From: Welwitschia mirabilis
Taxonomy: Eukaryota
DNA: 45,796 bases
Direction: 5' to 3'
NCBI GenBank assembly: GCA_051453625.1
Contig: JBOZIK010000001.1
Location: forward strand, 8,246,940-8,292,735
This document shows positions 1 to 29,743 of the stretch, in pieces; position 1 is the first letter of the stretch; each line of letters opens with the position of its first letter. The position numbers and the translations under genes were made by a program. The notes beneath the pieces were generated by a model. It was not told the origin of the DNA, did not search any database, and saw only the letters and a program-made list of their open reading frames with translations.

Positions 1-632
1 TGATCATTGAGCATATGAGGTCTATTCTTTATGGACATGTTCATTCTATGGATCCATTACAAAATGATTCAACATAAAAATGACACAATATTTACTAATA
101 TGCAATGCATTTTTCCTTTAAAGCTTCATAAGATAAAACCATAATAGCATTTGCCATAAAACAAAGATTGGAGTATACAGAATCTATGGATAAAGATGAA
201 ATTTTATCATTGAGCATAATTGTTGCCATCCTTTATTTTACTATTNNNNNNNNNNNNNNNNNNNNNNNNNNNNNNNNNNNNNNNNNNNNNNNNNNNNNNN
301 NNNNNNNNNNNNNNNNNNNNNNNNNNNNNNNNNNNNNNNNNNNNTCTTGTTGATGAGGCCATAATTTTCATTTGTATTCTCCTTTGTGAGTGGAATGCAG
401 ACTTCGGAGTTGCATTCCTTCGCGTTCTACTTTATCATCCTTAAAAGATGCACTATTTTGATCCTTATGGTTATTTGAGGTATGGCATGCAATTAAAGCC
501 AGTCATACAACACTCATAGTGGATTAAATTTACTTGCATAAATTCATTCATAATAACCTCATTACACACATTGCAACCATAACACACACCCACCCACCCC
601 AATGTAGTGTCATAGAAATTTGTGGTGTTACA
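1..632 (-). repeat. 3' LTR of element B (truncated by the window edge)
   Basis: Homologous to ~16978-17547 and ~18090-18664. On the - strand it begins TGTAACACC directly after a polypurine tract. Confidence 0.75.
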
Positions 633-655
633 TTATTCTCCCCTTAAGAATTTTC
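633..655 (-). promoter_or_regulatory. Polypurine tract of element B
   Basis: The - strand reads GAAAATTCTTAAGGGGAGAATAA|TGTAACAC, the typical Tekay PPT/LTR junction. Confidence 0.65.
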
Positions 656-1341
656 CATATCTAGAAGCTATTTAAGAAATTTAACACTCTAATAATAATC
701 ATTACTAAATTGATTAAGAAATGGATCCAAACCTAAGGTCTTAAACCAAGTATGATAACCTGGTCTTTGGATTAAACTTAAAAGGCACTAAAGTTTTTTT
801 GAAATTTGTATTATAATTACATGATTAGCCATTGTAGTAAATTAATTAGGTTTTGATTGAGATACTTAGCTCTCAGTTCCCATAGGCTATACCTATCACG
901 TCCATTGTTTTAATTATAAAGACTTAGCTTAAATTTTTAATAATTTTGTTGTTATAGGATCTTCAAGCTAATTTAGTTATTGTACTTATTTTTTTTAATC
1001 ATTGAGATATAATTATATCATGGAAATTTATGCTACAATTATTATTTTAAGTCCTTTTATTCTATAATAGCCATAATATTATTCTTGTTGTAAATCCTTG
1101 GTAATTTACTTATGATCTTTAGTGGTTATAGTAGTGGTCATGTTATCAAATAAGTTAGTGGTTGCATTAATATTAATTTCTTTGTGTAATTATTATACTT
1201 TTCTTTATATCACATAGAAAATGTATTTTGATGTGGCTCATCTTAAATTATTTCTTTTAGTAAATTTGTTATTTATTATGATAAATATTATGCACTTAGT
1301 AACCTAGCAAGGTAATGATTAGGGATTAGGGAATCCCTACT

Positions 1342-1408
1342 ATTTCCACCACCTTCACCACTTTAACTACTTTCACTACCTTTACCACTTACACCACTTT
1401 TACCACTC
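1342..1408 (+). repeat. Degenerate 9-bp tandem repeat (TTCACCACT-like, ~7 units) in LTR A
   Basis: The sequence reads ttccaccac cttcaccac tttaactac tttcactac ctttaccac ttacaccac ttttaccac. A shorter version lies at ~10741-10785 in the 3' LTR. Confidence 0.8.
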
Positions 1409-1465
1409 TCTTTAATGATGGTATCTCTTCATGTCTTTGTGTCTTTTTATATCTTATATCCTTGG

Positions 1466-1476
1466 CTATAAATAGG
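1466..1476 (+). promoter_or_regulatory. TATA box of the element A 5' LTR (CTATAAATAGG)
   Basis: Canonical plant LTR TATA motif followed by a pyrimidine-rich leader. The aligned site in the 3' LTR (~10840-10852) is mutated to TTTAGAAATGG. Confidence 0.65.
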
Positions 1477-3295
1477 ATCTTATTCTTCTCTTATTTCATA
1501 TCTTAAGAAAATCCTTTACTATCGAATCTTGACGACTTTAATCCTGAAGCTTCCAAAAGCCTTGATGCCTTGGAATATTTAGGAGTTCTTGAGTCTTTAT
1601 TTTAATTTAGGTATGATTCATGGTTTTTTTTTACTTATTTTATTACATAGTCCTTATCTCTTAATCTTGCATAATCTTTATTTTTGAATGACTTCAATAT
1701 TTATTTTAATTCCTATAAGGTTTTTCTTGCATATCATTTAAAGTTTCTTGTTTTATTCATATTACATATACCTCGTGTTAGTGCTTTATTAGAAACTTAC
1801 ATCATAATTCTTACTGATCTTGTTTAAGTCTTGTGATGAGTTTTATGATGGATTTAACTTGTTTGATTACTAAAATTATCTTGAAGATTTCTAAATAACA
1901 GAACTAAAACTAGCTAGGATAACTAGTTATTTAGACTTCAGGTAGTGATACTCCCTAAAGGGAGTCATGAGGCTGTGGGATTGAACCTTCAAGATGAATA
2001 GGAAAAATTTAACCAATTTATCATTTGTCCCTCCTATTTATGTACAACTATATTACTAAAATAAATTATAGAATAATAGTGTTAAAAAAATGATTTAAAA
2101 TGAGGTCTTAGTTACTTTTGAAATGATTTTGGCATTGTACATCTTAGATTATTCTTGGTACCTCTTTAATTATTTTGGCAATGTAAATTGTTTTGTTAGT
2201 TTACCTTAGAATTTCTTACCTTGTACTTGCAACCCCATACTAATCCATACCTTGCCATGGACCATACTAGGAACTGTGCAGGTTATAGTTTTCATGTCAT
2301 GCTTGCATGTGTAGGAAATTCTATAAGAGATTATGTGGAAAGGAGTTAATATCATGCTAGGTGTTGTCTATGTGATTTCATATTTATAAAATATTTATGT
2401 ATTATTTAACTCTCCTTGCTTTTTATTTAACTACATGCATATATTTGAAGGACCTTAAACATCCTAATGAATTGTAATATTTATGTGAACATGATGCTAG
2501 TTATTGTATTCAAATTTATTTGCNNNNNNNNNNNNNNNNNNNNNNNNNNNNNNNNNNNNNNNNNNNNNNNNNNNNNNNNNNNNNNNNNNNNNNNNNNNNN
2601 NNNNNNNNNNNNNNNNNNNNNNNTATTGAAATAAATTATGGAATAATAGTGTTAAAAAAAAATTGAAATGAGGTCTTAGTTGCTTTTGAAATGATTTGGC
2701 ATTGTACATCTTAGATTATTCTTGATACCTGTTTAATTATTTTGGAAATGTAAATTGTTTTGTTAGTTTACCTTAGAATTCCTTACTTTGTACTTGAAAC
2801 CCCATACTAATCCATACCTTGCCATGGACCATACTAGGAACTCTGCAGGTTATAGTTTTCATGTCATGCTTGCATGTGCAGGAAATTCTATAAGAGATTA
2901 TATGGAAAGGAGTTAACATCATGCTAGGTGTCATCTATGTGATTTCATATTTATAAAATATTTATGTATTATTGAACTCTCCTTGCTTTTTATTTAACTA
3001 CATGCATATATTTGAAGGACCTTAGACATCCTAATGAATTGTAATATTTATGTGAACATGATGCTAGTTATTATATTCAAATTTATTTGCAAGTGTTAAT
3101 TACTCTCCTTTAACGTAAAATTATTTGAGAAATACATTTATGTAGAATGTAAAATATAAATTAAGTTATAGATAATACTATTATCATCTAATGAATATTG
3201 AAATTTTCAAGTGAATGATCAAGTTTTCTAGACATCTATTAGGAGTTAAAATTCAAGATAAAATTTTAGGTTATGAAAACCTAGATATTACATTT

Positions 3296-3307
3296 TTGTA
3301 TCAAACC
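3296..3307 (+). promoter_or_regulatory. Degenerate tRNA-iMet primer-binding site of element A
   Basis: TTGTATCAAACC(TTAGGTT) lies 3 nt after the LTR-terminal CA. The consensus is TGGTATCAGAGC. Confidence 0.7.
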
Positions 3308-3519
3308 TTAGGTTGTGATTTTATTGGGTATAATTATTATTAAAATTTTTGATAAAAATGCTTTAATTATAAATTAGAATATGTAGCATAACTTCTATCA
3401 TGTAAGGAAAATTAGAAGCATTATGTTATAGAGGTTTACTACTAATGACAAGAACATCTGAAATATTTTAGATTCAACAGATAGGGAGTTATGCATAATA
3501 GATATTCTAGCCTCTTTTT

Positions 3520-4421
3520 TGCTTAGGGTTCTTTAACCATTAGTATACTATAAAAAGCTAAGAGGTTTCTCTTTAGTGTAAGCCTCATGTGAGTTTACTC
3601 TCTTTAACTATGGAAGCTTCATTTTTGGAATCAATAATTTTATTGTTAATAAGGACAACACTATTGTTTATCCTTGATGTAGCTTTACCCATTCACATGA
3701 TCTAGAGACATTGAGTTAGAAGTGACTTGACTAAGATATTTATAGTATTAATGAGATATAACGTGTTTTAGACCATATTAACTTATGAAAATGCAGAAAC
3801 TAGGGTTTGTATATGCCAATTCTTTATTCTTCATTTTATGAATTGGTTTCAATTCTAAGAATGCAACAAAATTAGGCTATAGTATTTGTAAGTAAGAGTT
3901 GTGGACATGAACATTTCTTTCAATTAAAAGGCATGGGGCATTAACACTAAGCAAAGTAATAAAAAAGCATTCAAATGTAAAGAAACATTAGGGTTTTGTT
4001 TTAAAATGCAATAATTCAAGGGATTTGTCTTCATATGAGCATTCTCATAAACTATTAGGGTTATAATATTAATAAATTTTTAGTTTTCTACACATCTGAG
4101 TAGAAATAAGGATTTGATACTACTAGTCATTAGAGAATAAGGTTATTATGGATGTATCATTGAGTTTCTTAGCATAAAAAATAGATTGAAGGATGCTCTT
4201 CGGGAATTGCTTGAAACTAGTGGAACCTTTGGAATGGACTTGATTAGATATTCATGAGTTAAAATAAGAGATAGAATGGCCAAATTCATAAGAGTATAAA
4301 TAACAGTATATTATTTTTATGAGTTATACCTTCAAGAACTTGAGGAATCCTTAACATAGTGGATCTGGTTCCCCATGATTCTATAGATGTATAGTATCCT
4401 GACTTATTTGAAACTACATAA
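3520..4421 (+). pseudogene. Heavily eroded and internally deleted Tekay-like gag/protease/pol-end remnant
   Basis: Motif fragments occur in the expected order: *GSLTI (cf. QGSMTV), KSCGHEH and GFCFK-C (double zinc knuckle, ~3885-4025), FGMDLI (cf. LGMDWL, ~4228-4245), VDLVP (cf. IDLVP, ~4359-4373), then *YPDLF (cf. the QYPxLF terminus of Tekay pol). There are many stops and frameshifts. Confidence 0.5.
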
Positions 4422-4859
4422 GGTTATCTCTTATTATTTGACATGTCTTTATGCACTAATAAATTCCTATGTCATTGTTAATTCAAGGCACACAAAGGAG
4501 TTCTTAGTAACTATAGAAACATAGGCTTCCACTTTTCTTAAAAGATCTCAATTCATTCACATTTGCTTTCTTGATTTTATCTAAGAACTAGTGATTGAGG
4601 TCATAGCGGAAACATAACAACATCCTAGACTTTTAAAAATCATACATGAGTAGGGAGGTTTTATTTAAAACTCCTACCAAGTAATGAATAATGCATAATA
4701 ACCTTGAGCATTCAAATCATCACTAGATGTATACTACTGAGATGAATACTTTTTAATGTTTGTTTTAAAGTTCTAATTTCTTTCTTTAATTACATTTTCT
4801 CTAGATTTGTGTCAGATTTCCTTCCAATCATAGAATCCATGTATTCATGAAAAATTTGA

Positions 4860-7800
4860 AGCTCTTATTACATTATGAGGATAACTTCACCCATCTCAAC
4901 ATTAACCTATTATGGAATTACGTTTCCTAACTTTTATTAATATTATAATAGCAAGGAGACTAGGAATAATGAGTAAGAAAACTGAGACGAAAGATAGTGA
5001 CACATTTAAATGAGTGCTAAAAAAGCATGATAACTGTTTCAAAAAATGCTAAATAAAATTTTTGTATCATGGAAGTGCTTATTAATGTATATTGCATATT
5101 TGGTAATATAGAACAAGCTAGAATTTTATTTGATGTGATGCCTGAGAAGATAGCATAGGGAAGAAGATTTAATACACTCTTAGAAAGAGACATTGTAACA
5201 TTNNNNNNNNNNNNNNNNNNNNNNNNNNNNNNNNNNNNNNNNNNNNNNNNNNNNNNNNNNNNNNNNNNNNNNNNNNNNNNNNNNNNNNNNNNNNNNNNNN
5301 NNCATCTAATAATTGGTGATTGAGGTCATAGTGGAAACATAACAACATCCCAGACTTTTAAAAATCATACATCAGTAGGAAGATTTTATTTAAAACCCCT
5401 ACCAAGTAATGAATAATGCATAATAACCTTGAGCATCCAAATTATCACTAGATGTATACTACTCAGATGAATCATTTTTAATGTTTGTTTTAGAGTTCTA
5501 ATTTCTTCCTTTAGTTACATTTTCTCTAAATTTGTGTCAGATTTCCTTTCAATTATAGAATCAATCTCTTCATGAAAAACTTGAAGTTCTTATTGCATTA
5601 TGAGGATAACTTCACCCATCGCAACATTAATATGTTATGGAATTACTTTTCCTAACTTTTATTAATACTATAATAGTAAGAAGACTAGGAATAATGAGTA
5701 AGAAAACTAAGACGAAAAATAGTGGCACATTCAAATGAGTGCTACAAGAGCATGATAACTATTTAAAAAAATGCTGAATAAAATTTTCATATCATGGAAG
5801 TGCTAATTAATGTATATTGCATATTTGGTAATATAGAAGAAGCTAGAATTTTATTTGATGTGATGCCTGAGAAGATAGCATAGGGGAAAAAGATTTGACA
5901 CATTCTTAGAAAGAGAAGTTGTAACATTATATGAGGGATTCAATATCTTTAAGTCTTATGAATCCTATGAATCAACTACAAGTAAAAGATGTGTATTCTA
6001 AGCATGAATAGTCGTGTTGTATAGAGACTAGTATCTTAGAATTATGGATCAATGATTTTCTAGAAATTTTTCTAGATAATTCTGACAAAGGGGGGAAATT
6101 GATTTTGTAATTATCACTTGCCTATTAAACTGTAAAAGGATGTTAGTAAAGCTTGGAGAGTATGTTGATAATCTAGTTAATAGAATTAGCTTAAATAGTA
6201 TGCATCTAGATGAGGTTCTTTGAGCTATTGTAAGTGTCATATTAGTTTTATTTCAGTTCTTTGAATTTTAACACTTCTAAAGAGATTATTTCTTTTGTCC
6301 TTAATCTTTGTGATTTTTTCTTAATAAAATTTGAAATAGCTTTTAATAGAGTAAAGGAGTGTGATGCAATGTATTATCTATTACCCAAGATTATGTGAAA
6401 TAAATAAGAACATTCAGGTATCACCATTGTTTTCTATTTGTCTAATTATAAGTGCATTGTTTGCAGTGGTAGAGTCTCCAAGACTTCTATTTACAAGTTT
6501 GATTCTTTTTTCATGAGACCTTTTCAGTAATGGTATCAAAGGCCATTCAGGAAATAGCTTGCTTAGAGTATTTTATATGTTTGCATTGCTATTATGAAAA
6601 AGAACCATAACTCAAGAGGTTTCTTTGTAATGGGTATATGGCTACTATTATTTTATCTATTGAAAAGGTTGTTTATTTCCAAATCAATAAGGAATTTATT
6701 CATAGATGACATATTTGATTATTAAAAATTGTAAGTATGATGTAAGTGCTTTATGCCAATTATAGCTTTACCTAATGCTCTAATCAATTGTGAAAGTTAT
6801 AACTAAACATGCCATGGAATAATAAATGGATCTCTAATTTAATCTTTGACATTTTCTCTTCTATTGACATTAAAACAAATAACATCGAAACTATCATCTT
6901 ATCAATGTCTCAATGGTTACTTCTACAAGTTGATGGTATGAATTAACTTTCCATTGTATTTTCCATTGCATTCTATGATTCTACCTTATCAATGATTATT
7001 CAAGGCTAAAATCATAGCATTTTAACTTTAAATAATCTAGTGCTATTGAATATGAGAAGCATGAAGAAGAGCTCATCTTGAAAGCTTTTTTGGAATATAA
7101 TTCACAAGTCAAGACATTGCATATTGAAGTAAATCATATGTACAAACTTTATGTAGTGTTAGGTATCCATTCAAGGTTTTAAAATAATTTGTATAATAAC
7201 AATATAAGGTGATTAGTATTTTGAGTAGGGAAGGTATATCATGAAAATGTTTATTTAATAAGTAAATTTCTTATACTATTTCAAAATGCTAATACAAAGC
7301 CAATGTTTGGTATCATCCTCTTAATCTTTCCTTTTTATGGCTCTATCTCTTTTATCTTATCTTTTTACATCATTATTTTCATTCATATATTTTCATGTAA
7401 CTTTTATAAAACATGTGGATTAAGTGTTCAATTAAAGTTTATTCATAATGATATAAATAGTACTTTGCAAAATAAAATAATCCAAGTTGGATGTTTGATT
7501 CCTTAAAATTGAGCTAATTTAAAATAAAACAAAATATACTTGTTTGGCTTGATAAGTGCTTTCACATCTTCTTCCTTTAAATATGCATTACCTTACTATA
7601 TAAATCATCAAAATTACATGTCCATAAAGCACATAACATAGAAGCCTTTAATTAGAATTGTAAGGTAATACATATGTATTAGGTTTTATCAAGAATTCAC
7701 AATAAATGAAACAATAGTTTGGTTTTGAGTATTGGTTTCTATTAAAAACATTCAATTTGGAGTTTACATTTTGCAAAATGAATGGTGTATTTTTAGTCAC

Positions 7801-9180
7801 AGACTTTAATAGAAATTCTTCTAAACCATGAAGAGAAAGGCAAGAAAGCATAGTTAATCTTGTGTANNNNNNNNNNNNNNNNNNNNNNNNNNNNNNNNNN
7901 NNNNNNNNNNNNNNNNNNNNNNNNNNNNNNNNNNNNNNNNNNNNNNNNNNNNNNNNNNNNNNNNNNNNNNNNNNNNNNNNNNNNNNNNNNNNNNNNNNNN
8001 NNNNNNNNNNNNNNNNNNNNNNNNNNNNNNNNNNNNNNNNNNNNNNNNNNNNNNNNNNNNNNNNNNNNNNNNNNNNNNNNNNNNNNNNNNNNNNNNNNNN
8101 NNNNNNNNNNNNNNNNNNNNNNNNNNNNNNNNNNNNNNNNNNNNNNNNNNNNNNNNNNNNNNNNNNNNNNNNNNNNNNNNNNNNNNNNNNNNNNNNNNNN
8201 NNNNNNNNNNNNNNNNNNNNNNNNNNNNNNNNNNNNNNNNNNNNNNNNNNNNNNNNNNNNNNNNNNNNNNNNNNNNTCAATGTCTAATGCCTCTTAGATT
8301 TGCAAACTAAACAATGTTGAAGTCCTCTTGTTATTTTAATTAATATAATTACTATCTTTATTGAATCATTTTACTTCCTATATGGAGTTGTAATCTTTAT
8401 CTTATTTTATTTCTAATGAAGGTAACAAAGATAACTTTGTTAAAGATTATGGGTTTAAACTTTGATGTGTCTTCTTTTACATACTTTGAGGTTTTATGTA
8501 ATATTACATGATTAGGCATGTGTAATTTTTGATGGTTTAAAATTGATAGGGTATCCCAACAATTTTTAATAATGCCAATAAGGTCATCTAGATTGGTAGG
8601 ATACTCTTCTGCTATTTAATAAGTTATAGATTCAAACTGTTACTATATTTATACACTATGAGAATTAATCATTCTAGTAGTTTTTACTTATAGCAGTATT
8701 CCCAATAATTCTTCATCATTGAAAAGAAATATTTTTAATTCTATTTTGAAATATTTTCTCTTGGTCTTGGAAAAGCAAAATAATAATATAGAAAGAAAAA
8801 AGGATAAGAAATTTGTACTAAAAAAGTAGAGTGCAAAATCAAAATACATAGACCTAGAGAATAAAAAAAGCAATTACATGGTAACTATATTGGGATTTTG
8901 CTTATATTATATGAAAATTTACAATTTGAAACTCAAAGGACATAGATTTAAAGCATCACTAGAAGAAATAGTAAGGTCTTAAAACCATTAGAAGCTTAAA
9001 AAAAAATTACCATTTAGAAGATCCATCAAAATAAGAATTTCTAACAATACTAATAGCTTTAATACTTGTTGAAAATCCATATATATTACATGACCAACTA
9101 AGAATCAATAAGAGTCTATATTTATCATATCTTTTCATACATTGATCATGATAATGCATTCCATGTTATCTGCTCTTGGT
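4860..9180 (+). pseudogene. Eroded PLS-class pentatricopeptide repeat (PPR) gene inside element A, possibly E+/DYW subclass
   Basis: The best motif is LINVYCIFGNIE(Q/E)ARILFDVMPEK (5078-5149, duplicate 5803-5874), matching the PLS consensus LIxMYxKCGxxExARxxFDxMPE. Other matches are NxxLWN (~4900), DSDTFK*VLK (~4995-5022), ERDIVT (~5183-5200), EIDFVIITCLLNC..KLGEYVDNLVNRISL (6095-6193), MSIKHIT*KPLI (~7618-7653) and *KFF*TMKRK (~7810-7839). A weaker E/DYW-like run lies at 8701-9180. Confidence 0.65.
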
Positions 9181-10319
9181 TTTTTCCATCGATTATAACT
9201 CTTACTTGTTAAACATAAAGCATTTAGTAGTTAAATACTATAATAGCTACTAACACATTGCACAATATATTCAGGTATAAAATTAGTAGTAAACTAAGAT
9301 TTAAGATTAAAGAGAAATTCAAATTTATAAAGCATAATAGTTAAGAGAGTCAAAATTAGAAGTAGTTGGAAATNNNNNNNNNNNNNNNNNNNNNNNNNNN
9401 NNNNNNNNNNNNNNNNNNNNNNNNNNNNNNNNNNNNNNNNNNNNNNNNNNNNNNNNNNNNNNNNNNNNNNNNNNNNNNNNNNNNNNNNNNNNNNNNNNNN
9501 NNNNNNNNNNNNNNNNNNNNNNNNNNNNNNNNNNNNNNNNNNNNNNNNNNNNNNNNNNNNNNNNNNNNNNNNNTATAATTATTATTTTAAGTCCATTCAT
9601 TTTATAATAGCCATAATATTATTTTTATTATTAATCCTTGATAATTTAATTATGATCTTTAGTGGTGAAAATAGGGGTTATGTTAGTGAATCAGTTAACG
9701 GTTGCATTAATATTAATTTACTTGTGTAATTGTAACACTTTTTTTTATATATTGTAGAAAATATATTTTGAGGTGGCTTATTTTAAATTCTTTATTTTAG
9801 TAAATTCATTATTTATTATAATAAAAATTATGCATCCAATGGACTAGGAAGGTAATGATTAGGGATTACTAAATCCCTACCACTTCCACCATCTTCACCA
9901 CTNNNNNNNNNNNNNNNNNNNNNNNNNNNNNNNNNNNNNNNNNNNNNNNNNNNNNNNNNNNNNNNNNNNNNNNNNNNNNNNNNNNNNNNNNNNNNNNNNN
10001 NNAGCTTAAGAAAACATTACCATTTAGAAGATCCATCAAAATATGAATTTCTAATAATACTGATAGCTTTAATACTTGTTGAAAACCCATATATATTACA
10101 TGACCAACTAAGAATAAATAAGAGTCTATATTTATTACATCTTTTCATACATTGGTCATGATAATGCATTCACATGTTATCTACTCTTGGTTTTTTTCCA
10201 TCAGTTATAACTCTCACTTGTTAAACACAAAGCATTTAGTATTTAAATACTATCATAGATACTAACACATTGTACAATATATTTAGGTATAAAATTAGTA
10301 GTAAACTAAGATTTAAGGT

Positions 10320-12239
10320 TAAATGACTTAGCTTAAAATTTTAATAATTTTTTTGTTATATGATCCTCAAGCTAATTTAGTTATTGTACTAATTTTTATT
10401 ATTATTGAGATATAATTACATTATGAAAAATGTGTGCTATAATTATTATTTTAAGTCCATTCATTTTCTAATAGCCATAATATTATTTTCATTATTAATC
10501 CTTGATAATTTAATTATGATATTTAGTGGTGAAAATAGGGGTTATGTTAGTGAATAAGTTAATGATTGCATTAATATTAATTTACTTGTGTAATTGTAAT
10601 ACTTTTCTTTATATAATGTAGAAAATATATTTTGAGGTGGCTTATTTTAAATTCTTTATTTTAGTAAATTAATTATTTATTATAATAAATATTATGCATT
10701 TAATGGCCTGGCAAGGTAACGATTAGGGATTACTAAATCCCTACCACTTCCACCATTTTCACCACTTCCACCACCTTTACCACTCTTTTTATGATGGTAT
10801 CTTTTCATGTTCTCATGTATTTTTACATCCTATATCCTCTTTTAGAAATGGGAACTATTTCTTCTCTCATTCTGTATGTTAAGAAAATGCCTTTATATCA
10901 AATCTTCTTGACTTTAATCTTGGACCTTAAAAAAGCCTTGGAGCCTTGGAATCTTTAGGACTTCTCAAGTCTTCATTTTAATTTGGGTACGATTCATGTT
11001 TTTTCATTTAAGTTCTTGCATGGTTCTTATCTCTTGCATCTTATATAGGCTTTATTTTGAATTATTTAAATCTTTATTTTAGTTCCTATAAGGTTGTTTT
11101 TGCATATCATTAAAATTTCTTGTTNNNNNNNNNNNNNNNNNNNNNNNNNNNNNNNNNNNNNNNNNNNNNNNNNNNNNNNNNNNNNNNNNNNNNNNNNNNN
11201 NNNNNNNNNNNNNNNNNNNNNNNNATGTTTAAATCTTTATTTTAGTTCTTATAAGGTTGTTTTTGCATATCATTAGAAGTTGATTTTTTTATTCATATTA
11301 CATACACCTCATGTTAGTGCTTTCTTAGGAACTTACATTATTGCAATCCTTATTGATCTTGTTTAAATCTTGTAATAAGTTTTGTTATGATTTGACTTGT
11401 TTGGCTATTGACCTTGGCTTAAATATTTCTAAATAAGAAAATTAAAATTGACTAAGGTAACTAGTTGTTCAGAATTTAGGGAGTGATACTATCTTAAGGG
11501 AGTCCCAAGGTAATGGGACTAAACCTCTAGGATGAATAGGAAAAATGTGACCAATTTATCATTCATCCCTCCTAGTTGTGTGCAACTAGATTACTAAAAC
11601 ATATTATGAAATAATAGTTAAAGAAGATAATTTAAAATATTTTGGCATTGTACATCTTTAATTATTCTTGGTACCTCTTGGATTATTTTGGCAATACAGA
11701 TTGTTTTGGTAGTATACCTTGGAATTCCTTACCTTATAATTAGAACCCGATAGTAATCCATACCTTACCATGGGCCATACCAGGAACTGTGAAGGTTAAA
11801 GTTCTCATGCTATGTTTGCATGTGCAAGAAGTACTACAAGAAATAATCGGAAGAGGAGTTAATATCATGCTGTGTGTCATCTATGTGATTTCATATTTTT
11901 GAAGGATTTATGTATTTTTAAGCTCATCTTGATTTTTGTTTAGTAGAATGCATATATTTAAAGGACCTTAGATGTCCTAATGACTTCTAATACTTACGTG
12001 AATAAGGTACTAGTTATTGTATTCAGATTTATTTACAAGTANNNNNNNNNNCTCCTTTAACATAGAATTATTTAAGAAGTACATTTATTTAGATTGTGAA
12101 ATATGAATTAAGTTGTGGATAATACTATTATCATCTGATGATTATTGAAATTTTCAAGCATATGGTCAATTATCTAGACATATATTAGAGTTTAAAAATT
12201 TAAGATAGAATTTTAGATTGCAGAAACCTGGATATTACA
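10320..12239 (+). repeat. 3' LTR of element A (second haplotype-like copy; first ~25 bp missing). A partial first copy lies at 9574-9902.
   Basis: Colinear with 915-3292. It ends CCTGGATATTACA and is followed by the TSD ATACC. Confidence 0.85.
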
Positions 12240-14892
12240 ATACCTCAGGAGAACTATTTGATGATAGCTCACTTGAGAAACATCACATCTAATGTTAGTG
12301 TTATTTAAAAATCTTAAGTAGGAATATATAAAATAACTATGTACATTGTGATTAAGTGGTTGGTTGCCCTACTAGCTAAGCAACCACACATACATATCCT
12401 CATCTAGAGGAGTTTGAATCACATGTAGTTCTATATTAAACTATGTTACCATCTTCATCAATACACGTAATCATAAGATAGATTAACATAATCCATATAT
12501 TAGTAGGAATATAGGTAAAAATATGCATGAAANNNNNNNNNNNNNNNNNNNNNNNNNNNNNNNNNNNNNNNNNNNNNNNNNNNNNNNNNNNNNNNNNNNN
12601 NNNNNNNNNNNNNNNNNNNNNNNNNNNNNNNNCCTACATATCCTCATCTAGAGGAGTTTGAATCACATGTAGTTCTATATTAGACTATGTTACCATCTTC
12701 ACCAATACACATAATCATAAGATAGATTAACATAATCCATATTAGTAGGAATATGGGTAAAAATATGCATGAAATAATGCAAGGATTATGTAAGCACTTA
12801 ATGTTTGACTCATTAAAACTATGTTTCCAAACTCAATCAAATAACATCAAGTGACATCACACACATATAAACATACATATGCATAATAGCTATATCGAAA
12901 GATATAGGAAGTAACTAATCAATAACTCTCAAGGTCACAACATCCATATCTAATAAGAAATTATAATGCATGAATGATGATAATACATATGTATTAACAT
13001 AAATCATATATGATTACTTGAGTATATACATAGTGAATTTTTGAAGTGATTACTTAATAATAATCACTCATTAACAACTTCATCAACCAAGCTTAAGAAA
13101 CCCCTCATATCTTCCCAATATCTTGGAAAGGAAAGTATCATAATAGAATGTCATTATAGTAAACTCATGTAGAAATATTATTAACACACATACACACCCC
13201 CCTCACCCACCTCCATTTTGGTAGGATACCACATATCTTTTCCTTTTATAATACAACAAATTCAATGTAATAATAAATAAATATATAGAATATCAAATCT
13301 AGTGTCTTGTATGCCACTGATTAAATTTATAGTATTAAAAAATTTAGCACAATAGAAGTAAAAGATAAAAATAGCTAATTAAATTTTTAATTATTTCAAT
13401 GAGCATCATAAAAGAATTCCTAATAATATATCTTTTTGTCTACAAGATAAAAATTAAGTTTTTTAAGGCATTTAATTCATATGCATGAATATATAAGAAA
13501 ATAAATTTCAAGATATATCCTCGAAATGCATTAACACATATTAGAAGTAATTGTAATCATTAAAGAATATGCTAAACCTGCATCATTATATAGACATGCT
13601 ATGCGTAACATAATTGCATTATTTTACAAAAACACACAACATTGTGACTAAGAAATCACATAAATATTTATTTTATGATGCTAACATAATAAAAATAATT
13701 CTATAAATTAAAATATTTATATGCTAATAAAATTATAAAAAGGAATTTAATCATATTATGTCCTATATAAATGTACATATTCATTTACCTCTAAGGGTCA
13801 TTACAAATTAGTGAATTTGTTTAATTGTCTAAGCCTTCTATTGGGTTCAAGTTAATTTTCAATTTATCATTATGATTTCTATTATTAATATCTCCTAAAA
13901 TCATTTTATTTGATTTATGTTTTTATTAATCAAAATTAAAATTGCCACCATAACCATTTATCCTAAGGGTGATCCTTTCACATTAAGAGACTAATATATA
14001 TATCAAAAGCTATTAATTATAATTATTATTTTCTATTTTAATACCTTAAACCATTTCATTACATATAATTATATTTTAATATGTATAACATATATTGTCA
14101 TGGCTCACATTGCACACTTTGCCATATGACTTGCATTAATTATCCTTACTAATTAAATTTTGCTACTACCTATTGGAAATATTGTTACAACATTATGTAA
14201 AGAGTATATAATGTGAATATGAGAATGATAACATATTATTAAAAAATATAGTAATACTATTGTATAATGACATGAGGAAAGAAAAGGCATTAGAGAAATT
14301 GTATCATCTGATTAAGTATGTTTTTAGTTAATAAGATCTAATCATCTATTTAACATTTTATATCTCACATAAAACTATGTTTGAGCATGGANNNNNNNNN
14401 NNNNNNNNNNNNNNNNNNNNNNNNNNNNNNNNNNNNNNNNNNNNNNNNNNNNNNNNNNNNNNNNNNNNNNNNNNNNNNNNNNNNNNNNNNNTATTGTATA
14501 ATGACATCGGAAAAAAAAAGGCATTAGAGAAATTGTATTATCTGATTAAGTATGTTTTTAATTAATGAGGTGTAATCATCTATTCCATATTTTATATCTC
14601 ACATAAAACTATGTTTGAGCATGGACGATCTATATAACAAATAGACTTGGAAACCCACTTTTTAAGTTTCATTATTATTTATAGCTAACTTTTATCTTGG
14701 ATTTGGATGATTTAACATCTTAAGTGTAACCAAAATTATTTGATTGAGTGGTCATAGTAGTTGTACTTAAAATAGAAGGTAAAATAACTAAAACATTGGG
14801 TTTGACACCCCTCTTATGATCTAATATATTTCAAGGTGATAAATAAATATGTCTTTCCTTTATAATATATATGTAATTCTATGCATATGAGT

Positions 14893-14985
14893 TAACATAA
14901 TATAATATAACATTATGCATATAATATAATATAATATAATATAATATAACATAACGTAACGTAACATAACATAACATAACATAAT
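14893..14985. repeat. Compound pentanucleotide microsatellite (ATAAT)n(ATAAC/GTAAC)n
   Basis: Directly visible tandem 5-mers with a stepwise change of unit. Confidence 0.9.
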
Positions 14986-16977
14986 ATTATGCATATGTGT
15001 TATGTAATGTAATACATATGTTTTCCATGTAATGTAAAAATATAATATTAATAGATCAAAAAATAATAATAAATAGTTGGATTACACTTATGCAACTTAT
15101 TATATATATTTATGATAATAATGTTGATCCCCTTTATTAAAATAATTGAATAGGTTCATTGTATATCAAAGTCCTCACTAAAATTATTCACTCTAAGACT
15201 TACTTATAAATCTTAAACAATATAATAGATTCATATTAAATTATCATAATGACCATATTAACACTATTATGATTTGGTAATACCTTTAGGCTTTATTTCT
15301 ATATTGTTATCTAATTAGAGTGGCTACAATACAAGTTTAATTAAGGATGCATTATAATACGGTATTAAGTAGTGTTGTTACCAATCAATATTAAAAGGAT
15401 TTTTACTTTAATATAAAAATAATTAAATTGAAAATATTAATATAATCTTAAAAGTTTGGGCTGATATCTTATTAGTTGTTTTAGTAAATGTTTTATATGT
15501 TAGGTCTTATATTATATGTTTCATGTATAAAATAAATATATAAGCTTTCATAAATAAATTTAATGATATTCCTTTGAGATCTAAACTATTGATGGGAATT
15601 TTAAGCATGAAATTAATATTGCTAAAAATTCCTAGATGCTTGAAATTACTAAGAGCAAATAATTAACACACTAAAAATTTATGGGAGGGAAAATAAACAC
15701 ATAAATAAATATCTAGATAACCAAAATACAAGATGTGTGACAAATACAACTCCTTTCCCTAGGAACTATTTATGGCCATTCAACCAATAAGGAAGGAATT
15801 TACATAACGATGTTTTCATTTATTCATTTATATTATTTTTCTATGTGTTAGCTTTATGAAACTCTATCACAGATCATAAGCATTTGTTATTTAAATTGGA
15901 TGCTAAATGTTTGCCTATGTTTCTAGTTTACTTAGATGATTAGTCTAAAGATTTTTCAAGTAAATGCATATGTTTGTGGAATGCATAACTTAAAATAAAA
16001 GGATGTCTATTCTAATATACGATATATTTTCATAACTAATCAATAACAAGAATTTTAGCACACAATCATCATAGTTATTTTATTTAGACAAAAGTAATGT
16101 AAATTCATTAAAAGGACACTCTAACGAATTGTATTGAATTTGATTTTTATATAGTAATTTCCCTTACAAAAATAGTTGATAAAATAAAAGATACACTAAA
16201 AATTAATAACCTAGAAATGACAACCAATTAAACAAAATCTATATGTAAAAATATTAATAGAAAGATAAAAAATTTGTTATTCCTTTAAGTTTCATGACAT
16301 GCTTAGATGATCTAACTTGGCATGACATCTCTAAACTTAAAATTGTTCTCTCTTGTTTCTCATTAAGTTTTTATTTAAAGGCTTATGGTTCTATGGTGAT
16401 TAAGAGAAACATAGATTTAAAAGACAATGGAACCAAAAGGTGGTCCACATTATGGTGAAAGGAATTATGCATGACATAATGTATGAATACCTCATTTTTA
16501 GATGTTCTTTAATGTAATAAATTATCTAAAATACCTCAATAGAGAGTACCTTATCTACTGTAGCAAACTCATTCCATATGTAGAACATTTAAGCAAAATG
16601 AATGTAGTCCATCCCTTGATGAATTAATCCTAATGAAACAATCTCAAAATATTCACAGAATTGTGATCATTATCTTTCATAAAATAATAGTTTCTCAATC
16701 TTATGATGCCCTCTACCTATGGATATGTCTCATCACAAAATGTGTAATTAAGATCAAAAATAGATTAGGGCAAATGCAGTTAATTCTTTACTTAAAACGA
16801 AGCTTATCTTTCACTTCAAATGCTAGCCTTGCATTTGTTAGAATGGCAGTGCTTGCAAGAAAGAAAAATGCTGCATTTACCACATCTTTCATCATGCTAT
16901 TTCTTAATAGAAAAATAATAATATTCTTTGTAAATGCATATGTACCTATACCTGCTACCATTTATTAAAGAGACAAA

Positions 16978-18664
16978 TAAATCTCGAGTAGATGAGACCT
17001 ATTCTTTATGAACATGTTCACTATGTAAATCCATCTCAAAATGATTTAACATTAAAATGATATGATCTCTCTCAACATGCAACGCATTTTTCCTCTATAG
17101 ATTTACAAGACAAAGCAGCAATAACATCAACTACAAAATAAAGAGTGGGATACACAAAGTTCATGGGAAAAGATGAATCCCTGCCATCGAGTACAACTAT
17201 TATCATCCTTTATTTTACTATTTCATTACATTTAGAGATGAGTGATACCCTAATTTACAAATAGTAATTACCATATTATTAGTGAGGCCATGATTTTCAT
17301 TTTTTTCTTTTCTATGAATGGAGTATAGGCTTCATAAATGTATTCCTTTAAGTTCTAGCTTACCACCCTCAAAAGATGCACTATTTTGTTCTTTGTGGTT
17401 ATTTAAGATATGGTGTGCAACTAGAACTAGCCCTGTAGCACTTATGGTGGCTTAGATTCACTTGTATAAATTCATTTATAATTACCTCATTACATACATT
17501 ACAAACATGACACACACCCCAATGCAGTATCATAGAAAGGTGTTACAAAGAGGCCATTAACTTAGGTAATTTACCTCTTTTATTTATAGGTAGTATGTTG
17601 GATTTTTTTATGGATTGTCATTTATCANNNNNNNNNNNNNNNNNNNNNNNNNNNNNNNNNNNNNNNNNNNNNNNNNNNNNNNNNNNNNNNNNNNNNNNNN
17701 NNNNNNNNNNNNNNNNNNNNNNNNNNNTTGATGAATCAATCCTAGTGAAACAACCTCAAAATATTCAAAACATTGTGATCATTATCTTTCATAAAATAAT
17801 AGTTTCTTGATCTTATGATGCCCTCTACCTATGGATATGTGTCATTACAAAATGTGTAATTAAGGTTAAAAATAGGTTAGGGTAAATGCAACTAATCCTT
17901 CACTTAAAACAAAGCTTATCTTTCACTTCAAATGCTAGCCTTGCATTTGTTAGAATGGCAGTACTTGCAAGAATGAAAAATGCTTCATTTACCACATCTT
18001 TCATCATGCTATTTCTTAATAGAAAAATAATAATATTCTTTGTAAATGTATATGTACCTATACCTACTACCATTTATTAAAGAGACAAATAAACCTTGAG
18101 TAGATGAAACCTATTCTTTCTGGACATGTTCACTATGTAAACCCATCTCAAAATGATTTAACATTAAAATGATATGATCTCTTTGAACATGTAATGAATT
18201 TTTCCTCTATAGATTTATAAGACAAAGAAGCAATAACATCAACCACAAAATAAAGAGTGGGCTACACAAAGTTCATGGGAAAAGATGAATCCTTGCCATC
18301 AAGTACAACTATTATCACCCTTTGTTTTACTATTTCATTACATATAAAGATGAGTGATACCCTAATGTACAAATAGTAATCATCATATTATTAGTGAGGC
18401 CATGATTTTCATTTTTTTCTTTTCTATGAATGGAGTATAGGATTTAGAAATGAATTCCTTTAAGTTCTAGCTTATCACCCTCGAAAGATGCACTATTTTA
18501 GTCTTTGTGGTTATTTAAGATATGGTATGCAACTAGAACTAGCCCTGTAGCACTTATGGTGGCTTAGATTCACTTGTATAAATTCATTTACAATAACCTC
18601 ATTACATACATTACAAACATGACACACACCCCAATGCAGTGTCATAGAAATTTGGGGTGTTACA
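16978..18664 (-). repeat. 5' LTR (or solo LTR) of family B, present twice across the 17628-17727 gap (copies end at 17547 and 18664); true left boundary undetermined
   Basis: Ends GAAATTTGGGGTGTTACA on the + strand and is colinear with 1-632. Confidence 0.75.
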
Positions 18665-21020
18665 AAGAGGCCATTAACTTAGGTAATTTATCTCTTTTAT
18701 TCATAGGTAGTATGTTGCATTTTTATATGGATTGTCATTTATCATCCCATTTACATTACCATTTCCTGATAAATGTTCCATCAATTAGCCTTTTTTTACT
18801 TGCATTATAGCTTAGTTTACATTATTGTGACATCTTTTCTTATCTTATCCTAATTAAGAACTATATTTTTTCCTCGTTTCTCTTTATTCTTTCTTTAATA
18901 TTTTTACCTAATAGAGATAACAAAACCTANNNNNNNNNNNNNNNNNNNNNNNNNNNNNNNNNNNNNNNNNNNNNNNNNNNNNNNNNNNNNNNNNNNNNNN
19001 NNNNNNNNNNNNNNNNNNNNNNNNNNNNNACATTCCATCAATTAACCTTTTTTTCCTTGCATTATAGCTTAGTTTACATTGTTGTGACATCTTTTATTCT
19101 CTTATCCTAATTAAGCACTATATTTTTTTCCTCTTTTCTCTTTCTTCTTTCTTTAATATTATTACCTAGTAGACATAACAAAACCTAGAACCAAATTTTA
19201 CTTATTTCTTTATTATCATTTTATATTCTAAGAAAATAAATCATATTATTATTATATATTTAACTATAATTACTTTTTAGGCTATTTTGATTTATAAGAG
19301 CTAGAGATATCATAAGTATGTGTTTTTTATTTCTTCCTAGTTTTTCATCACATAAAAGATATATTATGAATAGTTAACAAGATATAAACTTATTATAAAT
19401 ATACATGATTAAGTTTACCATAAAAATTAATATCTAGTAATTCTTTAGATGTAAAATGATTCTACTTTAGATTTTAAACTATATAAAGATGGTTGAGATT
19501 AACTATATAGGCTCCCACTTTGCCTCAATATACCTCCAATAAAGGTAAGAGGTGTTATATGAGATGAATGCATGCTTACCAATAACCTCCCTTTCTTGAA
19601 GCATTTCTAGATGATGCAACGTAATCCATTGATGTTAAGGGATTAAGATATTAAATTGGAGTAGATTTATATATGGGTAGGACAAAAGAGTGATGATCAA
19701 ATCCACTTCTAGAAGGGTATTATAAAAAAATGTAGTGAAATCCACACTGATGATGAAATCCAAATGCGATGATAGACATTATTAGAATTAACTTGATTTA
19801 ATATTGTAAGATGAATATACTAAAAAAATGCATGCATATGACTCTAACTAATGTGGATATATAATTTATTAGTCACTTGGTTATAATAATTCTAATAACC
19901 ATTAAGTTCATTTTAAAGAAATAACCATTAAAAAAAGATACATATAAGTGTTTGATCATGAATCTTAGAGGGGGTATGAATAGGTTTAAAAAAATTAAAA
20001 TAAATTTACAATATAAACTTATTTGAAGAGGAAATACTAAAATCTTTATACAAGGAAATTGAAAGCATTTTGAAGAATGAAAATAATAGAAGACATAGAA
20101 ATACTAATCAAATGCATGCAAGATTTATAGTGATTTGGGAAATCCCCCTACTCTACTCTCGATGATCAGTTTATAANNNNNNNNNNNNNNNNNNNNNNNN
20201 NNNNNNNNNNNNNNNNNNNNNNNNNNNNNNNNNNNNNNNNNNNNNNNNNNNNNNNNNNNNNNNNNNNNNNNNNNNNTTTCTTTATTATCATTTTATATTC
20301 TAAGAAAAATAAATCATTTTATTATTATATATTTAGCTATAATTACTTTTTAGGCTATTTTAATTTATAAGAACTAGAGATATCATAAGTATGTGTTCTT
20401 TATTTCTTCCTAGTTTTTTATCACATTAAAGATATATTATGAGTAGTTAAAGAGATATAAACTTATTATAAATATACATGATTAAGCTTACCACAAAATT
20501 TAATATCCAGTGATCCTTTAGATGTAAGATGATTCTAATTCAAGTTTTAAACTATATAAACATGGTTGAGTTCAACTATATAGGCTTTCACTTTGCCTCA
20601 ATATACCTTCAATAAAGGTAACAGGTGTTATATGAGGTGAATGCATTATCAAAAATGATCTCCCTTTCTTGAAGCATTTCTAAATGATGCAACATAATCC
20701 ATTGATGTTAAGGGCTTAAGATATTAAGTTGGAGTAGATTCATACATGGGTAGGATAAAAGAGTAATGATCAAATCCACTTTTAGAAGGGTATTATGAAA
20801 AAATGTAATGAAATCCACATTTATAATAAAATCCAAATGTGATGATAAACATTATTAGAATTAAATTGATTGAATCTTATAAGATGAATATACTACACAA
20901 ATGCATGCATATTATTCTAACTAATGTGGATATATAATTTATTAATTACCTAGTTATAATAATTCTAATCATCATTAAGTTCATTTTAAAGAAATAACCA
21001 TAAAAAAATACGCATATAAG

Positions 21021-23316
21021 TGTTGAATCATGAACTCTAGAGGGGGGATGAATAGGTTTAAAAAAATTTAAATAAATTCATAATATAAACTTATTTGAAG
21101 AGGAATCACTAAAACTTTACACAAGAAAATTAAAAGCATTTTGAAGAATGAAAATAATAGAAGACACAGAAATACTAGTCAAATGCATGCAAGATTTATA
21201 GTGGTTTGGGAAACCCCCCTACTCTACTCTTGATGATTAGTTTATAATCAAGCTTAATCCAGATCCTTATTAAACTCTTCTAGGTAGTGAAGGTTCACTT
21301 GTAACCTTTGCAAGAATTTTTTTTATGAAGGCTCAGTCTCAACCTTTTTGCAAGTGGATTTTTTTCTAAAGGCTTAGTCTCAACCTTTTGTAATAAATCA
21401 TGGTAGTAATGATAGAATACACAAGTACACTGGTATCACTCATTCTTTAGCTCAATAAGAATAATGAATAACTTCTTCTAAAGTTGATGTAATCCAAAAA
21501 CAATGAAATGCTATAGATTTAAAATTGTATGAGAAGGTACAAGAGTTGTTGATTCATCTTTGATTAGGAGTGTAATGTTAAAAAAGTACAATGATCAATC
21601 ACTAAGTTTCAATAGTTAAACAAAAGGTTTTATAGTGATTTTAATCTTGGCTATATATAATAAAAGGTTTTTAGGATTATTACAAGTGAAAATGTGCTCT
21701 TAATGATTATAAAATGGCTATATAATAGGTATAAAAGTTTCATTTTCATCTCAGCTGGTCGACCCCTCAAACATCTTTTCGACCTCTCCTAGTCTCATCA
21801 CGTAAATAAGTTACCTAAGTGAACTCTTCAATCACTCTACTTTCTTATGGTTCCACATCCGGTAGANNNNNNNNNNNNNNNNNNNNNNNNNNNNNNNNNN
21901 NNNNNNNNNNNNNNNNNNNNNNNNNNNNNNNNNNNNNNNNNNNNNNNNNNNNNNNNNNNNNNNNNNNNNNNNNNNNNNNNNNNNNNNNNNNNNNNNNNNN
22001 NNNNNNNNNNNNNNNNNNNNNNNNNNNNNNNNNNNNNNNNNNNNNNNNNNNNNNNNNNNNNNNNNNNNNNNNNNNNNNNNNNNNNNNNNNNNNNNNNNNN
22101 NNNNNNNNNNNNNNNNNNNNNNNNNNNNNNNNNNNNNNNNNNNNNNNNNNNNNNNNNNNNNNNNNNNNNNNNNNNNNNNNNNNNNNNNNNNNNNNNNNNN
22201 NNNNNNNNNNNNNNNNNNNNNNNNNNNNNNNNNNNNNNNNNNNNNNNNNNNNNNNNNNNNNNNNNNNNNNNNNNNNNNNNNNNNNNNNNNNNNNNNNNNN
22301 NNNNNNNNNNNNNNNNNNNNNNNNNNNNNNNNNNNNNNNNNNNNNNNNNNNNNNNNNNNNNNNNNNNNNNNNNNNNNNNNNNNNNNNNNNNNNNNNNNNN
22401 TTAACATTGTATGAGAAGATACAAGAGTTGTTGATTCATCTTTGTTTAGGAATTTAATGACAAAAAAGTACAATGATTAATCACTAAGATTCAATAGTTA
22501 AACAAAAGGTTTTTATAGTGATTTTACTCTTAGCTATATATATTAAAAGGTTTTTAGGGTTATTACAAGTGAAAATGTGCTTTCAATGATTATAAAATGG
22601 CTACATAATAGGTATAAAATTTTCATTTTCATCNNNNNNNNNNNNNNNNNNNNNNNNNNNNNNNNNNNNNNNNNNNNNNNNNNNNNNNNNNNNNNNNNNN
22701 NNNNNNNNNNNNNNNNNNNNNNNNNNNNNNNNNNNNNNNNNNNNNNNTCCTCAAGATCTGGTTGACCGCTCATCTAGTCATTAACATATCTATTCAGTCA
22801 CCCACTTGGTCTTAATAAAATCCATCATAATTTTTCTACTCCAAGTTTAATCCTTGGGAATCTAGTCGACTCCTTGCTAATTGGTGTTAAGTATTGATGC
22901 TTAATTCTTAAGTCTGTCCAATCCCTTAGGTGTCTAGTTGACCCCTTAATGATCCATTTAGGATATTAGGTGCATAGTGCTTAGGTTCGATCGACCCCTC
23001 ATTTATCTGGTCAGTCACTTGATGATTAGTTTAAGAGTACTGGTTCTTAGGTTCATAGGTCTAATCGAACCCTCAGATGTACAGTTAAATCCTTTAAATT
23101 CAGTTCATTTCTAAGAGTTTATTCTATGTATGATTGACTCCTTATAAGTCTAGTAGACTCCTCAAGAGGGTAATAAAGCTTAATAAGTTTCAGGAGTAAA
23201 ATGTGATAAACATTGCTTTAGCCTGCAAGTAATCAATATTTTCTGCATAAAATAAAACATATTTCAGTACACAAAAATATTAGTTTGACATCAACTAACA
23301 ATATAATATTTCAACA
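21021..23316 (-). repeat. 3' LTR of Sirevirus C (contains gaps; its inner end is duplicated at 24024-24440)
   Basis: TGTTGAA...TTCAACA termini form a perfect 7-bp inverted repeat. It is colinear with 29744-31782. Confidence 0.9.
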
Positions 23317-23745
23317 TTCTCCCCCTTTGACATTGATAGTAAACATTTTCTTGGTTGAGGAGATTTGACTTAGAAAAGCCCCCTCTCACAAAATGCCTAT
23401 TGATGTTTACAAAAATATTAAACCTTTGATATCAAGTTAGACATTTTGGTAAGACCTCAAATTCTATCAAAATTTAAAGATACTTTAAAATGCCAATTTA
23501 TATGATATATAACATTTTGATCATGAATTATTGAGTAACCATATAATATACCAGAAATTTTAGTTCATATTGAAATAGATGTGCACTAGAATAAGTGATA
23601 CACAAGTTATATAACATAGAAACAAGTGCAAATTCTATACTAAAAGATAATCATTATAATAAAGAAGTGATCATCAAGAGTAAAAACATTGAAAAGTATT
23701 AAATACAATTAAATAATTATTTCCCTTTTTACATTAATGACAAAG
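23317..23745 (-). promoter_or_regulatory. Sirevirus multi-PPT region
   Basis: TTCTCCCCCTTTGACATTGAT abuts the LTR at 23317. Further copies are AAAGCCCCCTCTC (~23375) and TTTCCCTTTTTACATTAATGACAAAG (~23720). Duplicates lie at 24441 and ~24673. Confidence 0.85.
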
Positions 23746-23799
23746 AAGAGAAATACACATAGGCATAAAAGAAAAATAACATAAGCATAGAGAGAAAAT

Positions 23800-26700: not shown

Positions 26701-27148
26701 ACTTACCACAAAGCTCCCTTATGACCATTATCTTATCTTCCATGGAGTTATGAAGAGATCAAAACTTCTCATAGTCCCCTCTTAGAAGATCAGTAACAAC
26801 CATAATAAAGTTGGTAGTAATTTTCATCATCTTCTCCAAAACTAGGGTTTTAAGGATTCTATAGTCAAGATCAAAAGAAGCATTACAATAGAACATTATG
26901 ATAAGGACAAAATAAGATGAACCTAAAACATCAAAAAAATAAGATAGATCCTAATATCACAAGAGTTATATCATATCTCTAATCTATCTAAGCTCTGAAG
27001 TAGTGATAGATATTTCTTAGTACACATGTTTCTTCTTAAATTTCTTAGAGGACTTTTCTAAAGCATCTTCAAAAAATACCTAGTAGAAATAAGAAGGATA
27101 TCTAGATGTAACTTCCTTGGTCCTTCTTGAAGGGTCCCTTAGCATTGC
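23800..27148 (-). pseudogene. Sirevirus env-like extra ORF, pseudogenised and present as overlapping duplicate copies (most complete copy 24755-~25810; also 26237-27148 and 23800-23923)
   Basis: It lies between the RNase H end and the PPTs. Motifs include SYFVLIIMFYCNASFD..LKTLVLEKMMKI (cf. YPxLVRxFYxN...V.G..I), LHLVFTYNFFP and an acidic E-rich C-terminus. ORFs 24833-25324 and 26081-26611 are open fragments of it. Confidence 0.75.
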
Positions 27149-27539
27149 AATCACTTAGTAAGATCTTAAAAACAAGAAAAATCTAAGAAAATCACTATAT
27201 CTAAAAGAAACATGAGGCTAGAAAGTAATAAAAAGGATTTGATTTCCACTTGCTTTTATAGAAAAAGTTAATTAGGGTGATTTTAAGAAAGAAATTGGGT
27301 CCATCAATAATACTTTTGCACTATAACCCTATAGGTCTGGTCAACCAGTTTGAGGTTTAGTCGACTTATTGAGTGTGGGTTTACAATATAGGTAGGGTCT
27401 AGGTGATCAGACTTTCAAGCTAGTTAACTAATTAAATCTAATCAACCAAATCATAGATCTGATTAACTGCCCTACAATTAGTAGTGGACAGTCACTTAAT
27501 CCCCAGTTTGTTTTGGTGATAAAGAAAAATATCATAATA

Positions 27540-27665
27540 TAGGGATTTCATAATAGTATCTATTAGTTGATATTCTATATTAATAAAATTCATATCATTG
27601 TTTTCTTTTTTAACTTTGTAGTTAACATGATATAATTATTTATGCTAAAAATTTTCATGAGAAAG
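27540..27665 (-). pseudogene. C-terminal fragment of copia RNase H
   Basis: FINIEYQLIDTIMKSL (27587-27540) matches the copia terminal motif FVxTxxQLADIFTKPL. Confidence 0.6.
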
Positions 27666-27692
27666 ATGAGAAAAATAACATGGTAAAAATAA

Positions 27693-29677: not shown

Positions 29678-29728
29678 TTTTGGTTCTAGAGTCTAAATCC
29701 ATTAAAATTTTAATACGGACTCAGCTTA

Positions 29729-29740
29729 GCTCTGATACAA
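29729..29740 (-). promoter_or_regulatory. tRNA-iMet primer-binding site of Sirevirus C
   Basis: The - strand reads TTGTATCAGAGC (11/12 match to TGGTATCAGAGC), 3 nt from the LTR end. Confidence 0.9.
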
Positions 29741-29743
29741 ATT

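Follow-up and report, generated by a model that had tools for sequence, protein, structure and literature searches.

The question raised by this 45,796-nucleotide stretch of Welwitschia mirabilis DNA (contig JBOZIK010000001.1, positions 8,246,940 to 8,292,735; hereafter the window) is whether a long terminal repeat (LTR) retrotransposon near its start carries a captured pentatricopeptide repeat (PPR) gene. A reading of the sequence alone had proposed that the pol gene of this element was replaced by a host messenger RNA encoding a PLS-class PPR protein. Our analysis indicates that positions 894-12239 probably represent a non-autonomous LTR retrotransposon that inserted once, long ago, and that is similar to the large retrotransposon derivatives (LARDs), with a stray PPR fragment inside. 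The PPR signal itself amounts to one dead motif some 100 bases long, most likely a fragment that strayed from a PPR gene or pseudogene, as opposed to a captured gene. The earlier proposal thus survives in part: a sense-strand PPR motif does lie in an LTR element with no detectable gag or pol, while the captured PLS-class gene or mRNA is reduced to that one motif, with no E or DYW domain.

Boundaries of the inserted element

The insertion is delimited by the following features, with coordinates counted from the first base of the window.

889-893: left copy of the target-site duplication (TSD), ATACC, read from the sequence; T is the next base on both sides, so that six bases match
894-3292, + strand: 5' LTR, homologous to the 3' LTR from about 906 (TG) to 3292 (...ACA)
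3293-10308, + strand: interior, about 4.9 kb of resolved unique length, without gag or pol
10309-12239, + strand: 3' LTR, AG...ACA
12240-12244: right copy of the TSD, ATACC, read from the sequence

The two LTRs are direct repeats in the same orientation and, with a duplicate at an assembly gap collapsed, are 82% identical, with a Kimura two-parameter (K2P) distance of 0.21 over 1751 aligned nt. Collapsing this duplicate brings the 5' LTR to a true length of about 1.8 kb. Both LTRs share the 3' end ...GATATTACA and terminate in CA; the homologous part of the 5' LTR begins with TG at 906-907, where the 3' LTR has AG, and the insertion boundary at 894 reads TA. From the K2P distance it follows that each LTR has drifted by about 10% from their common ancestor. 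Separately, both LTRs carry, at matching places (1339-1407 and 10743-10784), a short 9-nt tandem array whose unit is CACCACTTT or similar.

The neighbourhood of the element provides a view of its target before insertion. Thirteen contigs of sequencing run X5 align from 12243 onward, and the consensus of their preceding loose ends matches the left flank at 878-893. These alignments indicate that, where the host repeat occurs in other copies, one outer flank directly adjoins the other, in the manner of an empty site. Since flanks that adjoin each other elsewhere are here split by 894-12239 and bear a common ATACC, a single insertion with a 5-bp TSD is indicated, and the TSD-bounded LTR element of the sequence-only reading (ATACC at 889-893 and 12240-12244) is confirmed by the adjacency of its flanks in the X5 contigs. 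The flanks themselves, 600-893 and 12245-12530, are another high-copy repeat into which the element inserted, with a summed contig depth of about 830-2250 in the end bins.

The insertion is shared with a second organism, whose contigs carry the interior, the junction of the 5' LTR with the interior and the junction of the 3' LTR with the flank at approximately 93-98% identity, consistent with an old insertion. The 31 listed contig pieces include none that spans 5202 to 5929 or the junction between the interior and the 3' LTR. The latter junction occurs in two contig versions (9312-9373 and 10324-10385), which are the same until 14 nt into the LTR and then continue in wholly different sequence; a nested insertion present in one haplotype, or else a chimera at a contig end, could produce this difference.

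Four nucleotides past the end of the 5' LTR, a 12-mer at 3296-3307 (+) resembles a primer-binding site (PBS), agreeing at 9 of 12 positions with the initiator methionine tRNA (tRNA-iMet) motif. Matches with up to 3 mismatches on both strands of the window number 21 against 20.9 expected by chance, and only the position of this 12-mer is informative.

We also considered whether there is one element at all. Two independent copies of an abundant repeat, either solo LTRs or fragments, could border unique intergenic DNA of about 5 kb, as might be suggested by repeats that are just 82% identical, by the great abundance of their family, by a low-copy interior that ends in no polypurine tract (PPT), and by an unbridged gap of 410 N. 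Such an arrangement is nevertheless highly improbable: the outer flanks share a 5-mer and lie side by side in further copies of the host repeat, which requires a single insertion, neither repeat has a matching 5-mer of its own on both sides, and the PBS-like site adjoins the upstream copy.

The PPR-like motif and its extent

PPR likeness in the interior is concentrated in one motif, present twice in the scaffold, with a further weak candidate upstream.

5057-5155, + strand: PPR-like motif, copy 1, a stop-to-stop frame of 33 amino acids (aa); PF01535, 20.7 bits (E 4.7e-4)
5782-5880, + strand: PPR-like motif, copy 2, in the duplicated contig end; PF01535, 23.7 bits (E 4.9e-5)
4141-4254, + strand: weak likeness to the last PPR motif before an E domain, unsupported; 7 tblastn high-scoring segment pairs (HSPs), E 0.11-0.98

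The first two are the only PPR matches found by Pfam among the 114 frames of at least 25 aa on both strands of 3200-10400, and both score under the gathering cut-off of 25. The PPR-like peptide that had been read on the + strand at 5078-5149 is indeed present, within the 33-aa frame 5057-5155. As a 24-mer it is found exactly at 5803-5874, and with 23 of 24 residues at 5078-5149 (Q for E).

The doubling of the motif is a property of the scaffold. The window contains 32 runs of N, and self-BLAST of the window shows that sequence ending at such a gap recurs right after it, at 77-100% identity. With both alignment ends required to lie within 10 nt of the gap edges, duplicates of this kind are found at 17 of the 32 N-runs, and among the 20 gaps that measure exactly 100 N they occur at 15. 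Because a gap exactly at the joint would not be expected of a genuine tandem duplication, we read these repeats as an assembly artefact, namely overlapping divergent contig ends, from haplotypes or similar sources, that were scaffolded consecutively. The two LTRs offer an independent check, in that self-BLAST shows whatever segment is 'duplicated' in one of them to be present just once in the other. Within the element, the duplicates are as follows.

4579-5202 and 5304-5928: assembly duplication with the PPR motif, 91.4% identical, abutting the 100-N gap 5203-5302
2629-3090: assembly duplicate in the 5' LTR, copying 2059-2523, with the gap 2524-2623 between
8993-9311 and 10003-10323, 9574-9902 and 10438-10766: assembly duplicates at the 3' side

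The apparent second motif is accordingly the product of divergent overlapping contig ends placed one after the other. Further gap-straddling repeats occur downstream of the element, at 16616-17627 and 17728-18744, at 19205-20176 and 20277-21247, and at 24893-26097 and 26237-27440.

Evidence on the identity of the motif comes from a phmmer search of the 33-aa frame against 1.84 billion representative sequences, which matched 776 proteins at E<=1e-3, 69 of them at E<=1e-10. Most of the matched proteins show 4-11 matched stretches, as is characteristic when one repeat unit is compared with proteins made of repeats, and the consensus of the matched stretches in the best matches is a run of 31-residue repeats. 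All 10 of the matches that were checked are PPR proteins, and 3 of these have an E motif and/or a DYW domain. Identity to the listed matches ranges from 33 to 50%, with no close parental protein among them.

The motif might also be regarded as a chance open frame in AT-rich DNA, given that neither Pfam score reaches the gathering cut-off, that the motif stands alone with stops on either side, and that the two contig versions give no clear sign of constraint, differing at 4 of 99 nt inside the motif and at 50 of 526 outside. Chance is however an improbable source for an E-value of 4.9e-5 among 114 frames, or for matches to 776 proteins that recur along each protein. Other frames contain nothing comparable: 103 longer frames beyond the region (E<=0.01) have no PPR match, and 44 frames of 20-24 aa in 3293-9373 (E<=0.05) and 150 frames of 28-44 aa from 12400-29820 (E<=0.005) have no Pfam match of any kind. 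The motif is likewise the sole significant match of a PPR profile in all six frames of the window. On account of the phmmer and Pfam matches, the PPR identity of the checked proteins and the blank control frames, we accept the sequence at 5057-5155 as very probably PPR-derived.

The signal does not extend measurably beyond this motif. In a tblastn search with 150 PPR proteins, which aligns through stops, 642 of the 660 HSPs at E<=1 lie at 5003-5200 or 5701-5880 (+), and the remainder consists of 8 at 4126-4290 (7 on the + strand) and 10 scattered singly. At E<=20, bins of 250 nt on the + strand hold 0-10 HSPs over the rest of the interior, with two exceptions. The bin at 5500-5749 (37 HSPs) owes its count to alignments extending into the copy-2 motif, and the bin at 4000-4249 (41 HSPs) does not rise above unrelated peaks in the window (60, 54, 41 and 35), whose bins have a median of 2 and a 90th percentile of 8. 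A profile derived from 129 segments of PPR proteins, each covering several motifs, was compared with the six frames of the window, stops being treated as X. It matches only 5776-5874 (independent E 6.2e-9) and 5051-5149 (independent E 3.4e-8), in both cases within profile positions 89-121, which correspond to one motif.

Two candidates for additional PPR sequence were rejected. At 4141-4254, read as a last PPR motif followed by E, the score of a purpose-built profile was -2.7 (E=2) over 4141-4200, Pfam gave no match and HSP density was at background level. A second, shortened motif at 5150-5200 (and, in another frame, at 5881-5950) was suggested by a small number of gapped tblastn alignments (E 0.009-0.7) and was not recovered by the profile. 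No E_motif, Eplus or DYW match was found by Pfam over the 158 interior frames (the 114 and 44 frames above), and the profile of a motif with E1 reached only the -2.7 (E=2) already given.

These results bear directly on what had been claimed for the region. The many weaker P/L/S-like fragments described there were not found by Pfam in the 158 frames, by tblastn with the 150 proteins or by the 129-segment profile, and the second PPR match that had been placed at 6095-6193 falls in a frame, 6086-6220, with no Pfam match at E<=10, no tblastn HSP at E<=1 and no profile match. None of the three methods detects a tandem PPR array; they converge on one motif of 31-33 aa, or about 100 of the roughly 4900 resolved bases of the interior. 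The motif does match PPR repeats, and 3 of the 10 best matches that were checked have E or DYW, as in PLS-class PPR genes; unlike such genes, the locus lacks a repeat array, an E or DYW domain and an intact frame, and the idea of a fossil of LTR-mediated PPR retroduplication falls for the same reasons. Judged from its sequence, the interior 'cargo' is not a PPR gene.

Coding content, copy number and origin of the interior

The interior is also devoid of recognizable retroelement genes. A collapsed pol remnant had been described as ending near 4421, but there are 0 retroelement Pfam matches among the 158 frames, and tblastn with five Copia polyproteins gives nothing better than E=5 in 900-12300 (Gypsy was checked through Pfam only). 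The same Copia polyproteins, as a positive control, detect a gag-protease remnant elsewhere in the window, at 27615-29677 (-), with E down to 5e-39. By Pfam, the 158 frames contain neither a coding remnant at either end of the interior nor any other host-gene domain. The scaffold span of the interior includes the assembly duplicates (5304-5928, and 9312-10002 with gaps) and a gap of 410 N (7867-8276).

Copy number differs sharply along the element. When contigs of four runs were aligned at a likeness of at least 88%, which excludes copies below 88% identity, the summed contig depth, a quantity distinct from copy number, was 30-4180 over 800-3121 and 77-2267 over 9314-12400, compared with 0.13-19 over 3509-9313. 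A contrast of about 100-fold between LTRs and interior was found in all four runs. Because single contigs have a depth of about 3-7, the interior occurs in one or a few copies, and the family of the LTRs is abundant.

Non-autonomous LTR elements longer than 4 kb are defined as LARDs in PMC13570524, which stresses that such elements form a continuum. The locus resembles them in having two long LTRs, a non-coding interior of several kilobases, a 5-bp TSD and a PBS-like site, with mobilization in trans presumed; the interior, at about 4.9 kb resolved plus gaps and with one sub-threshold PPR motif only, agrees with the LARD definition in size and in its non-coding character. According to this reading, the element would have been reverse transcribed and integrated by proteins that an autonomous partner supplied in trans, with its LTR ends and the tRNA-iMet-type primer site serving replication. 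Integration into another high-copy repeat would have produced the 5-bp ATACC duplication, and subsequent decay would have left LTRs that now differ by 18%.

Several observations weigh against the LARD-like interpretation. The interior is low-copy in the runs examined, whereas LARD families normally have an interior that is common to, and conserved among, their copies, and the depths that bear on this point are sums and not copy numbers. No convincing PPT precedes the 3' LTR, the 24 nt upstream of 10309 containing about 16 purines without a run and the second contig version being alike. For the 12 nt that follow the left TSD (894-905), the 3' LTR offers no clear equivalent, and it starts with AG and not TG. 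The empty-site evidence is one loose-end consensus, with an agreement of 0.66, from one run. Finally, the 410-N gap at 7867-8276 is bridged by scaffolding alone, and coding remnants could lie inside it.

Some of these features would also be expected of a once-autonomous element that lost gag-pol after insertion, by internal deletion or replacement or through a nested low-copy insertion, with the PPR fragment arriving as part of the later DNA. The retained TSD-bounded structure and PBS-like site, the absent PPT, an interior unrelated to any retroelement protein searched and the second contig version, which leaves the 3' LTR 14 nt after its start (9312 vs 10324), are all consistent with such a history. 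We consider it unlikely, since the PPR-bearing stretch has no bounding terminal inverted repeats (TIRs) or second TSD, the 11 inverted pairs detected being short, and coding remnants have left no trace at either end of the interior.

The same search addresses whether the PPR stretch could be a later Pack-type insertion. With the assembly duplication collapsed, the 11 inverted pairs around it (18-28 nt, 71-89% complementary) include none that brackets the motif, and the stretch has no TSD of its own, which argues against this route. As a small isolated gene fragment in repeat-rich DNA, the motif resembles the captures by Pack-MULEs and Helitrons that figure in PMC3814199; it differs from them in having no TIRs, no separate TSD and, among the Pfam-tested interior frames, no transposase domain nearby.

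Another alternative is transduction of host sequence. LTR elements carrying host fragments have been published, and according to PMC3814199, which cites Elrouby and Bureau 2010, the maize element Bs1 is a copia-like LTR retrotransposon with host gene fragments. By analogy, the interior or part of it could be host sequence acquired by template switching during reverse transcription, and the PPR motif could be what remains of a captured transcript after deletions. The low-copy interior between high-copy LTRs, the sense-strand motif and the failure to find gag or pol in the interior favour such an origin, and the locus shares with Bs1 the lack of a normal pol and a host-gene-like piece in the sense orientation between LTRs.

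Here, however, that piece is one PPR motif of about 33 aa, or some 100 nt in about 4.9 kb, with no open frame beyond it, neither an E or DYW nor another host-gene domain was found, and no parental protein more than 50% identical occurs among the listed matches. Captured coding sequence should also have stayed visible at full length with about 10% decay per lineage. We therefore assign transduction of this kind a low probability, and a very low one to the specific proposition that, as in Bs1, the low-copy interior came from the host and was carried as cargo between the high-copy LTRs, with the lone motif as the last trace of a PPR transcript acquired through template switching. That a whole PPR transcript was captured when the element inserted is very unlikely, because with about 10% drift per lineage an array of repeats 2 kb long would remain conspicuous, just as the Copia gag remnant is still found at E 5e-39.

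Other retroelement pieces and the meaning of the locus

The window as a whole is AT-rich, with a GC fraction of 0.13-0.31 per kb (some bins being lowered by N-runs), and contains 0 Rfam families and 0 tRNAs (by ARAGORN). Outside the element, three domains of decayed plant retroelements were recognized by sequence.

29060-29299, - strand: Copia gag, by Pfam
27696-27965, - strand: Pol beta-barrel, by Pfam
42348-42497, - strand: piece of a reverse transcriptase (RT)-RNase H in a 50-aa frame, 25.6 bits, just over the cut-off

The closest relatives of the Copia pieces in the window are angiosperm proteins. No long protein related to the RT-RNase H frame at 42348-42497 came up in a search made with it. 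Two of the domains belong to a second LTR-type element on the - strand at 21049-31800, with Copia gag at 29009-29677, protease and beta-barrel at 27615-28088, and, just upstream of gag, a match to the tRNA-iMet PBS with one mismatch (29729-29740, -). Its LTR-like repeats, at 21049-23339 and 29798-31780, are 75-82% identical. No integrase or RT part was found in this second element by tblastn with the five Copia polyproteins, and it may be truncated or gag-only. A 170-aa frame at 24836-25345 (-) matches 'putative plant transposon protein' PF20167 weakly (E 0.0037), far under the cut-off.

The expansion of PPR genes through retroposition has been proposed (O'Toole et al. 2008, as cited in PMC3814199). 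A whole PPR gene between LTRs would, if true, be direct physical evidence for such an expansion; that evidence is not given here. If the interior were host cargo of the Bs1 kind, the locus would be one of very few physical examples tying LTR elements to the movement of PPR genes. Two practical lessons follow for this scaffold and for the reading of repeat proteins in it: here, sequence that recurs across an N-gap is an assembly artefact, so that any 'tandem duplication' straddling a gap is suspect, and one well-preserved repeat motif should not be taken for a gene. The locus is an ordinary decayed piece of repeat-rich plant DNA.

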